Below are positions 25,927 to 54,619 of a stretch of DNA of 64,000 nt, piece after piece. The stretch spans positions 32,001 to 96,000 of the forward strand of contig CBFGTS010000003.1 in assembly GCA_965652295.1 (NCBI GenBank). Reading direction: 5' to 3'. Position 1 is the first letter of the stretch. The number at the start of each line of letters is the position of its first letter. A program made the translations under genes and the position numbers. The notes beneath the pieces were generated by a model. It had not been told where the DNA came from and did not search any database. It worked only from the letters and a program-made list of their open reading frames with translations. This DNA comes from an uncultured Haloferula sp. (GTDB lineage Bacteria > Verrucomicrobiota > Verrucomicrobiia > Verrucomicrobiales > Akkermansiaceae).

Positions 25927-26586
25927 GTGCTCCGCCCCCACATCAGCCTCAATTTCGCCCTCTCCGCCGACGGCAGGATCACCTCCGTCGCAGGCATTTC
26001 CTCGGGCTGGACTTCGCAAGCCGACAAGGACCGCCTGCTCCATCTCCGCCGATCCGCCGACGCCATCCTCGTCGGCCGGGGCACGCTCGAAGCCGACCGC
26101 ATGACCATGACCGCGCCGCAAAACCCGCTGCGCTGCGTGGTCTCCGGAAAGGGCCGCTTCGATCCCACTCACCCGCTCTTCCACACACCCGGCGGGCCGA
26201 TCCATCTTCTCGGAATCGAAAACCCGCCCGAGCCGGTGGGCGAAGCGACGCTCCACCACGCCAGCCTCGCGGACTTCCTCGGATCGCTCCACCGCGACCA
26301 CGGCATCCGCCACCTCCACTGCGAGGGCGGCGGCACGCTCGTCCGGGCCCTTGCGGAAATGGACGCCATCGATGAAATCCACCTCACCTGGGCGGCCCAC
26401 ACCCTCTTCGGCGGGCGCAGCGCCCCCGGACTCGCCGGCCCCCCCGGCGATTTCCTGCCCGCATCCCGCCGCTTCGAACTCACCGACTTCGATCCCCGCT
26501 CGGAGCTCGGTGAATGCTTCCTGACCTACCGACGCGTCTCCGCAGCCGCCGACTCATCCGATCCGCCCTCTCAAGGGCCGTCGTGA
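25927..26586 (+). CDS. RibD C-terminal / DHFR-like reductase
   Basis: RPHISLNFALSADGRI, RRSADAILVGRGT, CEGGGTL, IDEIHL; start chosen at GTG 25927. Confidence 0.85.
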   Translation: MLRPHISLNFALSADGRITSVAGISSGWTSQADKDRLLHLRRSADAILVGRGTLEADRMTMTAPQNPLRCVVSGKGRFDPTHPLFHTPGGPIHLLGIENPPEPVGEATLHHASLADFLGSLHRDHGIRHLHCEGGGTLVRALAEMDAIDEIHLTWAAHTLFGGRSAPGLAGPPGDFLPASRRFELTDFDPRSELGECFLTYRRVSAAADSSDPPSQGPS

Positions 26587-26655
26587 TTCCGGGGGCGAAA
26601 AACGGATGCATCACAATTCTTGCGACTCCGTTTCAGAAGAAGCAGCATCCGCTTC

Positions 26656-26889
26656 ATGGAAACCTTCGAGAAGGCCTTCATCGAGCAGCATGCCGCCCTG
26701 GACCAGGTCATCGAGAAGGGGCTCGCCCTTCAGCAGTTCCGGTCGCGCCACGCCGAGGACGAATGGTCGCCCGAGATCGGGACCGAGCTCCAGCAGCTTC
26801 TTGAAGGAGTCACCGCCGCCGCGGAAACACTCAGCGTCCGGACCCGGCGGGTTTCCTCGATGCACCGCGAAAAACTCAGCGGGTGCTGA
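26656..26889 (+). CDS. Small hypothetical helical protein (77 aa)
   Basis: Host-like codon usage, ATG start, followed by a hairpin with T tract. Confidence 0.55.
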   Translation: METFEKAFIEQHAALDQVIEKGLALQQFRSRHAEDEWSPEIGTELQQLLEGVTAAAETLSVRTRRVSSMHREKLSGC

Positions 26890-26904
26890 CCCTCCTTCCC
26901 CGCA

Positions 26905-27005
26905 ACAGAAAGCCCCGGTCTCTGGGGGGAGGAAGACCGGGGCCTTTTCGGGGGGGGGTAAGACAGCGTGGGGGACGCTTGCGGGGGGATGGTGCGCTCG
27001 CTTGA
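26905..27005 (-). ncRNA. Putative C-loop small RNA, copy A
   Basis: Minus-strand hairpins with CCCCC(A) loops; ACGCTGTCTT..CCCCCGAA core and upstream GGATCTACGCAG box shared with copy B; boundaries and strand inferred. Confidence 0.4.
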
Positions 27006-27119
27006 CGCGCCGGTAGATTCCCATGATTCCAGCGATTCGCAATCCCCCCAATTGGAGGCTGCGTAGATCCCCGCGGAGGAAAATTGACAACGCGGCCCGA
27101 TGTTCCCGATTCCTAAGAT

Positions 27120-27288
27120 ATCGAGGTGGTCGCAGAGCTTCTGCACCGCCTTGGATCGTGGATCGTAGGAACTTGTTGTCTGGGTCAGCCTGGGGGGCTG
27201 GCTCCCAACTTCAGAGCCCCTCGCGGGCTCGTTTCAGCGATCCGCGTGGGTGCCTGGCTTCTGGGGGGAAGCCGGGCACCCTTCTTTT
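27120..27288 (+). ncRNA. Putative G-loop small RNA ending in an intrinsic terminator
   Basis: TTGACA at 27084; hairpin GTCAGCC-TGGGG-GGCTGGC; terminator GGGTGCCTGGCTTC-TGGGGG-GAAGCCGGGCACCC-TTCTTTT (27248-27288); 5' end inferred. Confidence 0.4.
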
Positions 27289-27504
27289 CGACAAACGGAA
27301 TCTCCCAACCCCCGGCCACCACTGAGGTGATGGCTCCGGGGGCTGGGATCCGGCCCTAGAAGCCGGGTCACCCACACAGTGACGAGACCAAGTCTCCACC
27401 ATTCCCCCGTTCTAACAATCACGTCATGGAGGATACGTCTTCACGCGGGCGAACGGCCTCGGGCTGGAGGTCCTCTTGGCCAACTTGGCGATCCTGAGGC
27501 CGTT

Positions 27505-27610
27505 GAAAGAAAAAGGGAACGGCCCCACCCTCAGGGGAGAGGTGCGGAGCCGTTCGGGGGAAGACAGCGTTGAGTTCTGGGGGAACTGAGCCAAGCGATG
27601 CCCGCTCGCA
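27505..27610 (-). ncRNA. Putative C-loop small RNA, copy B
   Basis: Paralogous to copy A; minus-strand AGTTC-CCCCA-GAACT hairpin, ACGCTGTCTTCCCCCGAA core, terminal hairpin plus CCCTTTTTCTTTC. Confidence 0.45.
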
Positions 27611-27956
27611 AAATTGCAGGAATTCACCTCCCGGCAATCTCCTTCGAAGGAAATCTGCGTAGATCCCGCTGCCCGGATCGGAAACCACCCTCAGAAGATT
27701 CGGTTTCTGAGGTAGCGCTGGATTCTGGGACTTCGGTCCCTCCAATGATCGCGAATCATTGGGATCGGGCACTCCTTCTTTCAGAGCGAAGGGGGATGAT
27801 GGGCTAAAACCGAGATCCTCCCGCGAGGAACCGGGTCACTGACACTCCACAGTGTTTACGGCCGAATTTCCAGCCGAGAGACGCGAGACCGTCGGCCAAT
27901 TTCGGGTGAGGTATTTCCTTGAAATCGGACATCCGTCCGCCACATTGCCAAATATC

Positions 27957-28355
27957 ATGAACCCTTCCGTCCTAATCTCAGCATTATTCTTGGCGGGCAC
28001 CAGCGCTCACTCTCAAGATGCTTATGAAGGAGCAGCTGAAGACCTTGCGCTTCTCCGAGACACGCAGCAAATCGCTTCAGAGGGCGACTCTGGAAAAACC
28101 ATTCGAGCCTCAACTTCAAAGGCTATTGAAGCAGCGGAACGAGTTTTCTCCCACATTCCTATGCTCTTCAAGACGAAGAGTGAGGTGCTGCAGATCCTCG
28201 GCGATCCCGCCACGATCAGTGATTACGCAGCGCCTGCAAAGGCAGATGACAAGACCTTGATCTATCGCTTCGATTCCGGATACGGCGGGCTTCAATTTTC
28301 GATCAGCTTCCGCAACGACATTGCCCATACCGTGCAGATCGACGAATTTGAGTGA
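27957..28355 (+). CDS. Hypothetical secreted protein, lower GC than host
   Basis: Signal peptide MNPSVLISALFLAGTSAHS; KTKSEVLQILGDP resembles SmpA/OmlA (BamE)-like motif; many A/T-ending codons. Confidence 0.6.
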   Translation: MNPSVLISALFLAGTSAHSQDAYEGAAEDLALLRDTQQIASEGDSGKTIRASTSKAIEAAERVFSHIPMLFKTKSEVLQILGDPATISDYAAPAKADDKTLIYRFDSGYGGLQFSISFRNDIAHTVQIDEFE

Positions 28356-28531
28356 GGTATTGAATGAATGATTACTTCGGCTCCTCATTCTTCCGCCATG
28401 GATCACGCTTTTCTGATGATTTGACAGTTCAATTCTCCAATTACATCTGCTCTGGAGGTCGCGCTTCCCGGGGTGAATCGAGAATGTGGAATTGAGCGTC
28501 ATCGGTTCCCCCTCCCTTCCTCAAGGATGAA

Positions 28532-28606
28532 TGGTGCGCGGTGCAGGGTTCGAACCTGCGACCCCATCGGTGTGAACGATGTGCTCTACCACTGAGCTAA
28601 CCGCGC
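28532..28606 (-). tRNA. tRNA-Val(CAC)
   Basis: GCGCGGTTAGCTCAGTGGTAGAGCACATCG-TTCACAC-CGATGGGGTCGCAGGTTCGAACCCTGCACCGCGCACCA; 75 nt, encoded CCA. Confidence 0.97.
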
Positions 28607-28707
28607 TTTCACGCTGCCCTTTCGGGCGGGGCCGCAGTCTCTAGGGTACTCGCCCGGGCTTGGCAAGCGGCTTTGCAAAAAAGCCACGCTCGGGTATTCC
28701 AAGGGCC

Positions 28708-54479: not shown

Positions 54480-54619
54480 TGGAAGGTTCGAGCTCGAACC
54501 TCATCCTGTGTCTTCCCGCTGTGACTGCTGTTCGAACATCGTTTGGGTTTATCGATGGACGACAGGTTGCAACCGGCTCGCGGCTGGAGCGATTTGGGGT
54601 CGCTCCAGCCGCTTTCATT
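54480..54619 (+). ncRNA. Putative ECF-driven G-loop small RNA
   Basis: Between promoter copy 4 and hairpin GCGGCTGGAGCGA-TTTGGGG-TCGCTCCAGCCGC-TTTCATT; internal CATCG-TTTGGGTTTAT-CGATG hairpin; no convincing ORF. Confidence 0.5.

Follow-up and report, generated by a model that had tools for sequence, protein, structure and literature searches.

Introduction

Fully complementary cis-antisense RNAs that make loop-loop contact through hairpins with weakened upper stems are known from ColE1 (RNA I/RNA II, with the Rop protein) and from CopA/CopT, and the CsrB, RsmY and RsmZ RNAs, which occur as several paralogues, carry repeated hairpin loops that end in GGA (the ANGGA motif). Closer to the locus described here are systems in which a G-rich sRNA is complementary to C-rich sRNAs, as reported for RosA with RoxS and FsrA in Bacillus subtilis and for RsaI with RsaE, RsaG and RsaD in Staphylococcus (PMC8216469). 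RosA/RoxS and 6C RNA are described as systems in which ribosome-binding sites rich in G are blocked by the C-rich RNA (PMC8216469, PMC6486639), and the FopS RNAs are described as multicopy repressors that act near start codons (PMC11697453). In the accessible literature on sRNAs of Verrucomicrobia, Haloferula, Luteolibacter and Akkermansia and on G/C loop sponges, we found no account of the G-loop family considered below, and supplementary motif tables may bear on this point.

Here we follow up a first-pass annotation of the window, by which we mean the whole stretch of DNA analysed (64,000 nt from the genome of an uncultured Haloferula sp., G000). It had proposed a G-loop sRNA family with C-loop sponge RNAs; comparative evidence bears out a plus-strand G-loop family and a separate C-loop family of opposite polarity, while the element at 54480-54619 drops out as a member.

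Results and discussion

The G-loop unit and its surroundings

The locus occupies a non-coding stretch of about 1 kb between an ORF for a 77-aa protein and an unassigned ORF near 27957, with an isocitrate dehydrogenase gene and a RibD-like gene upstream of the stretch (Table 1). A tRNA-Val(CAC) gene lies 1.2 kb downstream of the cassette (28532-28606, minus strand). On the plus strand at 27084-27290, a promoter-like site is followed by a hairpin unit of about 170 nt with two G-run loops and by a U-tailed terminator. From 5' to 3', the predicted RNA consists of a 5' hairpin, a junction with the first G-loop stem and a variable hairpin, and the G-loop terminator; covariance model R3, described below, scores 85.2 bits at 27165-27289. 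Both G-loop hairpins of the first reading are present, that at 27184-27202 as the inner portion of a longer stem and that at 27248-27281 followed by TTCTTTT, and TCTGGGGGGA does occur at both 27260-27269 and 26921-26930. The hairpin at 27248-27281 is the sole plus-strand terminator-like site within 26400-28700. Two ORFs that run across the G-RNA (27126-27359 and 27023-27325) were rejected, as they have no Pfam match, are not called by the codon model and differ from G021 by single-base indels.

Table 1. Features of the G-loop/C-loop cassette, in window coordinates.
Feature	Position	Strand	Basis or remark
77-aa helical-hairpin protein	26656..26889	+	promoter-like site puts start at ATG
C-loop RNA 1, four C5+ tracts, UCCCCCCAGA in terminal loop	26903..27008	-	covariance model R2, fold
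Hairpin, probably a bidirectional terminator	26912..26944		would end plus-strand ORF mRNA and minus-strand C-loop RNA 1
Predicted sigma-70-type promoter, C-loop RNA 1	27015..27042	-	TTGCGA-N16-GAATCT
Conserved spacer between divergent promoters	27044..27071		CCAATTGG palindrome and TGCGTAGA box; alignment with G021 copies
Predicted G-loop RNA promoter	27084..27111	+	TTGACA-N17-CGATT, type YTGAAA-N16/17-CGATW
G-loop RNA (predicted start ~27119)	27119..27290	+	fold, covariance model R3, covariation
First G-loop stem, CCUGGGGGGC	27182..27204	+	both sides changed in 5/6 pairs
Terminator hairpin, UCUGGGGGGA loop and U tail	27248..27288	+	both sides changed in 12/15 pairs
Third conserved hairpin unit, UGUG-rich loop	27300..27400	- (weakly supported)	common to three G021 loci (L011, L197, L165)
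C-loop RNA 2	27503..27600	-	first portion of degenerate tandem duplicate of cassette
Remaining duplicate	27655..27860		TGCGTAGA box, decayed promoter, G-RNA remnant without G loops

Copies of the G-loop RNA across the genus

Covariance models were needed because BLAST of the region against 61 and 151 genomes found little outside G021. Model R1, seeded from four copies (the window, C11, C13 and G021), retrieved new copies at up to 69.5 bits, and model R3, built from 17 sequences, was used on 35 genomes of the genus. At E<=0.01, R3 has matches in 22 of the 35, and 21 of these 22 hold a copy with the full layout (5' hairpin, G-loop stem, variable hairpin, G-loop terminator and U tail); further R3 matches (23 and 12) were inspected, and the sole match in G011 was false on inspection. 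Seven copies at 65 bits or more and one weak match are found in G000, eleven matches in G021 and five in G032; weaker copies occur in G023 and G005, and the G run of the first loop is interrupted in one G027 copy. Outside the genus, 4 of 91 genomes match under stricter filters, two with both loops. The lineage-specificity suggested at first is thus too narrow a description, the family being genus-wide with weak matches in other genera. A terminator pattern scan of the genome collection gave five loci (L154-L158). L156, titled Haloferula luteola and excluded from the genome counts, is a full G-RNA copy (69.5 bits); L155:86-205, from a Planctomycetota MAG, scores 41 bits with R1 and 34.6 bits with R3 and by eye has the terminator G loop only; L154 scores 23.5 bits, and the matches at L157 and L158 are weak or absent. 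In Rfam 15, no family matches the G-loop RNA at or above its gathering threshold, and the whole window gives a tRNA only; at E<=5 over eight loci, the G-RNAs themselves are without a match, the exception being a sub-threshold anti-hemB match on the opposite strand across the G/C junction of C21.

The copies are few and divergent (mean column identity 55%), and their orthologous positions are kept between genomes. In a MAFFT alignment (A9), pairing holds in 90.4% of cells, and both sides have changed in 17 of the 21 pairs, as compared to 4-7 for slid registers, with the structure having been predicted from A9 itself and the sequences being kin. The consensus fold is -37.6 on the G strand (covariation term -2.75) and -21.65 on the C strand (+1.5), and terminator wobbles in 47 copies number 99 G-U against 38 A-C, which favours the G strand. 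The two-loop layout is seen in 46 of the 47 tallied copies, a count that is partly circular because rows without that layout, or doubtful ones, were left out beforehand (L173, L184, L191, L196, L198, L201 and L204). Judging from these comparisons of copies, the G-loop unit represents a genuine and so far uncatalogued RNA family of several copies, and its strand is the G strand.

The element at 54480-54619, which had been taken to mirror the G-loop unit, resembles it in layout only: BLAST against the cluster gives nothing, and the scores are 6.7 bits with R1 (E 3.2) and 12.1 bits with R3 (E 0.33), the best R3 match outside the cluster yet not a significant one. It folds well (z -4.1), with shorter and different G runs, and is intergenic, lying before a LacI-type regulator gene and containing a perfect terminator-like palindrome. 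A search of five relatives, run without a positive control, found no match to it.

The loop motif itself is enriched in this genome. Fifteen of the 16 occurrences of TCTGGGGGGA lie outside called genes, non-coding DNA being ~12.5% of the genome, and a comparison with shuffled controls gave 14 intergenic occurrences against 0-5 across 10 dinucleotide shuffles. Pyrimidine-led G5-7 runs fall in hairpins in 28 of 486 cases, against 5-15 hairpins across 8 shuffles, and purine-led control runs in 4 (2-7 in shuffles). The loop variants TCCGGGGGGA (8 versus 4-9 in shuffles) and TTCGGGGGA (22 versus 5-22) are not enriched in this genome.

Other intergenic hairpin elements are present in the genus. One conserved element (G000 C5:121166, with L050, L054, L058, L062 and L086) has a long 3' hairpin capped by UCUGGGGGGA and occurs once per genome in six genomes, and a further family (L043, L072, L073 and L084) carries a UCUCUGGGGGGAGA hairpin and has tandem copies in G017 and G005 that are spaced by about 1 kb. 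Two-G-loop variants of other layouts are found at G000 C3:225481-225560 (with L060) and at G000 C4:171072-171567 (with L114 and L193); at the C4 locus, a G-loop unit directly follows a CGAT-type promoter, with a full G-RNA 350 nt on, and the locus lies before the same gene in G021.

A predicted promoter class for the G-loop RNAs

The promoter and terminator sequence signals of the G-RNA are present and conserved. Of 21 G-RNA copies in G000, G021 and G032, 13 are preceded within 110 nt by the pattern YTGAAA-N16/17-CGATW, which was derived from those very copies; in three more it sits some 350 nt upstream, and five are without it. In copies from other species it is found in 0 of 23. With a 17-nt spacer, the CGATW-type motif has 10 non-coding matches in G000, compared with 1-4 per spacer at 14-16 and 18-20. 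Its -10 part does not fit sigma-70, a sigma-70 scan gave no promoter at the scan thresholds, and we take the predicted promoter to resemble those of sigma-28 in spacing and of sigma-32 in its -35 box. As a candidate cognate sigma factor, FliA has no match above cut-off in five genomes, and the only second region-3 sigma in the genome is RpoS/RpoD-like and below all cut-offs shown. We infer that the G-RNAs are transcribed from a promoter class of their own. A possible clue to the cognate sigma factor is found at G000 C9:10606-10643, where a CGAT-type promoter-like site precedes a gene by 7 nt and the ORF ahead of that gene is, by eye, ECF-sigma-like.

C-loop RNAs of opposite polarity

C-loop RNA 1 has a predicted length of about 105 nt and has C runs in its hairpin loops. 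Model R2, built from seven sequences, scores 66.2 bits on C-loop RNA 1 (26903-26987) and 69.3 bits on C-loop RNA 2 (27509-27588), both of them training sequences; at E<=0.05 it matches in 15 of the 35 genomes, with several copies at E<1e-3 in G000, G021 and G032 only. Against 6C RNA (RF01066), C-loop RNA 1 scores 32.1 bits (E 0.94), below the gathering score of 47. The opposite polarity originally assigned to the C-loop units holds, because U-rich tails and promoter-like sites sit on the C strand: over 15 copies, U in the 12-nt tails numbers 88 versus 43 and G-U wobbles number 4 versus no A-C, and 9 of 15 family-1 C-RNAs are preceded by a promoter-like TTGC/TTGG-N16/17-xAxxxT (one further match, for unit 2, falls inside the RNA and is not counted). 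The CCAATTGG palindrome and TGCGTAGA box of the spacer are possible regulator sites on sequence grounds, and CCAATT is present upstream of the G032 C-RNAs too. In the rest of the cassette, the third hairpin unit has a consensus fold of -15.8 kcal/mol on the minus and -10.3 kcal/mol on the plus strand, lacking a favourable covariation term, and R3 finds no match at E<=3 in the remaining duplicate. CACAC stretches in several C-RNAs could pair with the UGUG-rich loop of the third unit.

A second C-loop family, searched for with a G012 copy, is present in 19 of the 35 genomes (one by a 20-nt piece only) and in none of G000, G021 and G032. Its RNAs carry several C5-7 tracts, of which 129 of 145 are preceded by U. 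This family (L208-L237) is genus-wide and often tandem, with a conserved upstream palindrome of ACGCGAT-CGCGT type that looks like a regulator site. Separately, at G000 C3:185930 and C3:186380, C-tract stretches directly follow stop codons between co-oriented genes; one has an exact loop complement, and both are possible mRNA-borne partners.

Complementarity of the two loop families

We lean towards G/C loop pairing as the working principle. The loops are complementary as had been claimed, over up to 10 nt (UCUGGGGGGA against UCCCCCCAGA). The further suggestion of a sense/antisense pair does not fit, as the two RNAs are non-overlapping and only their short loops would be available for pairing; the gaps between their model matches measure 178 and 219 nt in the window and 7-755 nt elsewhere in G000, which is not a same-DNA cis-antisense arrangement. 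In G000, the mean best perfect complement is 9.6 nt. Speaking against pairing, C-RNA tracts do not head the genome-wide target ranking, in which the best of them ranks only 49 of 6332 C5+ sites. The tracts of the C-RNAs are accessible at -6 kcal/mol or better in 17 of 18 cases, as compared to 42-50% of coding, antisense, 3' and other intergenic tracts; C tracts in 5' leaders are also fairly accessible (66%). In G000, a C-RNA is found at a distance of 7-571 nt for three of the seven G-RNA copies. G021 also shows clustering, at C22 and with a degenerate copy at C29, and so does G032 at C16 on inspection by eye alone; both divergent and convergent arrangements occur. A possible convergent C-RNA of uncertain polarity at C11:51085-51215 is left out of the linkage count and is included among the G000 C-RNAs for the flank and complement comparisons. 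Also counting against pairing, family-2 C-RNA loci are hardly ever near a G-RNA (one weak match, E 0.026, in 29 loci), and the eight genomes listed below have G-RNAs but no convincing C-RNA match.

Loops and tracts differ together between groups of genomes. We contrasted G000, G021 and G032 with 12 other genomes. Five-G loops make up 14 of 42 in the three and 0 of 32 in the twelve, and five-C tracts 32 of 50 and 21 of 90, respectively; UCCGGGGGGA is found in 8 of 42 loops versus 22 of 32, and its complement in 0 of 17 C-RNAs versus 9 of 20. In the other genomes, the conserved C hairpin closes by a U-G wobble that completes the complement of UCCGGGGGGA, and hairpin closure alone can explain the flanking nucleotides. 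The mean best perfect complement is 8.9 and 9.0 nt within the groups versus 8.3 and 8.5 nt across them. The clade shift is a single contrast among kin with unequal copy sampling. The nearest kin by IDH identity are G021, G032 and G008 (85-89%), and features common to them count as one event because they are nearest relatives. G/C pairs from the same genome are no more complementary than cross-genome pairs (8.7 versus 8.8 nt). Nested co-folding of the G-RNA with C-RNA 1 yields -4.1 kcal/mol, with contact made by the 3' tail instead of the loops, kissing being beyond the reach of this method; since nested co-folding gains nothing by opening the stems, the G/C contact would be of the loop-loop (kissing) kind.

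A tentative mechanism and its direction

Our best account, which we offer tentatively, is that the G-loop element is a likely independently transcribed sRNA that would pair with C runs without Hfq, with the C-loop RNAs as titrating decoys. The loops of the G-RNA would pair with runs of five or six C, the targets would be C runs that are likely located in mRNA start regions, and the C-loop RNAs would titrate the G-RNA away. This would be an Hfq-free G/C pairing circuit like RosA/RoxS, possibly with the roles reversed, a reversal that we propose because the genome lacks a Shine-Dalgarno signal. Hfq (PF17209) has 0 matches in G000, the control having matched in 5 of 14 genomes, and CsrA (PF02599) likewise has 0 matches in G000, which is 98% complete (control, 3 of 14). 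Before start codons, taken from our own gene calls, GGAGG dips and C makes up 33-38% at -30..-3; no 16S 3' end could be located in the assembly to supply the anti-Shine-Dalgarno sequence of the host. The first 30 coding nucleotides contain 13 G5 runs versus 65 C5 runs.

Two considerations led us to take the G-RNA as the regulator. The C-rich leaders and the missing Shine-Dalgarno peak leave few obvious mRNA targets for C loops and many for G loops, and most copies of the C-RNAs bear more than one tract (2-5), which would suit a decoy. The target data tip the balance towards a G-RNA regulator and C-RNA decoys only modestly. Among 72 sites of TCCCCCCGGA in five relatives (from 70 loci, part of 113 matches), 34 are intergenic, many of them the G-RNA and C-RNA loops, 21 are coding with sense C and 17 with G; in 5 of the 72, the 10-nt complement falls between -25 and +10 of a called start on the mRNA strand, versus 0 on the other strand, a small count that C-rich leaders explain in part. 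In G000 leaders the seed complement is not enriched, AG following 1% of 113 leader C runs versus 5% of intergenic runs, and genes with C-tract leaders show no signal-peptide enrichment (13% versus 15%). Extended further, the account becomes a chaperone-free two-family RNA titration network in Verrucomicrobia without Shine-Dalgarno signals, where G-loop sRNAs would silence C-rich start regions, co-evolving C-loop RNAs would titrate them, and a Rop-like helical protein would be clustered with both in one clade; as a whole we hold this to be doubtful.

The strongest competitor, itself somewhat unlikely, makes both RNAs decoys for proteins: the two GGGG hairpin loops of each G-RNA would bind a candidate RNA-binding protein, for example one with an RRM, the C-loop RNAs would bind another, poly-C-binding protein, and complementarity would be incidental to homopolymer loops. 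Each G-RNA does carry two near-identical capped loops, as Csr/Rsm decoys also do, and in the minimum-energy fold the loop is just 3-4 nt. Other intergenic hairpins of the genus, built differently, are capped by this loop too, and eight genomes with G-RNAs have no convincing C-RNA match (G001, G004, G008, G018, G027, G028, G031 and G033). The genome has four RRM genes, one of which adjoins a G-RNA and one of which has a G-loop terminator; however, of the G-RNA loci listed, gene calls place an RRM gene next to just one, in G000, and the RRM link was rejected as not conserved. CsrA is without a match, and neither the parallel change of loop length and flank nor the G/C clustering in different orders would be expected if two unrelated proteins were involved.

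Improbable in our judgement is the classical direction, in which the C-loop RNAs would be regulators of G-rich mRNA sites, in the manner of 6C or RoxS, and the G-loop RNA a sponge like RosA or RsaI. The entire pairing evidence applies to it equally, as does the weak 6C match, and a separate promoter class suits a conditional antagonist. Set against this are the absence of a Shine-Dalgarno peak, the few G runs at start codons, the lack of a common theme, by eye, among the 49 listed genes with G5 leaders, and the fact that C-RNAs offer more sites than G-RNAs.

The cassette could alternatively be a local module around the 77-aa protein, with C-loop RNA 1 as a 3'-overlapping antisense RNA (a type I toxin-antitoxin layout) or the protein as a Rop-like helper of the kissing complex, and with the G-RNA tuning the module. 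The hairpin at 26912-26944, for which simple termination of the upstream small ORF had been offered as an alternative, probably serves that purpose as well: both strands have T-rich tails (5 and 4 T in 12 nt), and it can therefore end the ORF mRNA and C-loop RNA 1, which would thus share one hairpin in a convergent layout. As the ORF mRNA would end in the 3' hairpin of C-RNA 1, it would itself display a G loop. The ORF has eight copies, most with a promoter-like site that would set the start at the first codon, and four of the eight have a G-RNA at about 600 nt or less, the gene order taking three forms; the other four, however, have no G-RNA nearby, and the ORF is confined to 3 of 35 genomes (G000, G021 and G032) as against 21 for the G-RNA. 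The protein is modelled as a two-helix hairpin (helices 4-31 and 39-74, pLDDT 95), and the fold search puts a lengthened Rop variant at rank 8 (Z 9.6, rmsd 2.2, 74 aligned), where it is tied with dozens of unrelated coiled coils. There is no Pfam, NCBIfam or Atlas match, relatives were not found beyond its own set, one search having given four family members and one 1747-aa repeat protein, and by eye the protein has no membrane-spanning stretch. We regard this module as highly unlikely. By eye, two ORF copies (L164 and L165) lie after tRNA-like genes, hinting at movement with integrative elements. That the units are not RNAs at all, only stacked terminators or REP-like DNA palindromes, is barely credible given the strand-biased wobbles and compensatory changes, the promoter-like sites at fixed spacing with U tails, and copies that are few, divergent (55% mean column identity) and kept at orthologous positions.

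Comparison with known systems

A conserved multi-copy family with a complementary partner offers a handle on RNA regulation without the usual chaperones or a Shine-Dalgarno signal, and its short loops, with natural matched variants (UCU/UCC), make pairing testable in vitro; if only the protein-decoy explanation were true, the RNAs would be bait for the missing RNA-binding proteins of the phylum. Like ColE1 and CopA, the system has weakened upper stems and a small helical-hairpin protein nearby, the likeness to Rop being generic, whereas its G-RNA and C-RNA do not overlap. Unlike CsrB, RsmY and RsmZ, it comes without a CsrA match, has two loops only, and carries a G5-6 run in place of ANGGA. 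It resembles FopS/RbpB of Bacteroides in that the host has RRM proteins and the sRNA family has multiple copies (PMC11697453), a likeness drawn from descriptions; the FopS antagonist is a protein, and homopolymer loop pairing is absent from that account (PMC11697453). Both the C-loop RNAs and 6C RNA (RF01066) have C-rich loops, and 6C pairs with G-rich sites without a chaperone (PMC6486639); 6C is actinobacterial, has two loops where several tracts are found here, and is reported without mention, in the portion of the source available, of a G-loop partner family (PMC6486639). The short G-C runs and a predicted separate transcriptional control are shared with RosA and RsaI (PMC8216469). RosA, in contrast, is described as a single gene with single-stranded G regions, whereas here both sides are multi-copy and two conserved hairpins, one of them the terminator, bear the G runs in their loops; the partners of RosA are further said to repress at G-rich ribosome-binding sites, whereas the present host has no Shine-Dalgarno peak. 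Compared by description, the G-loop system thus probably works like G-C pairing of the RosA/RoxS type without being a member of it.
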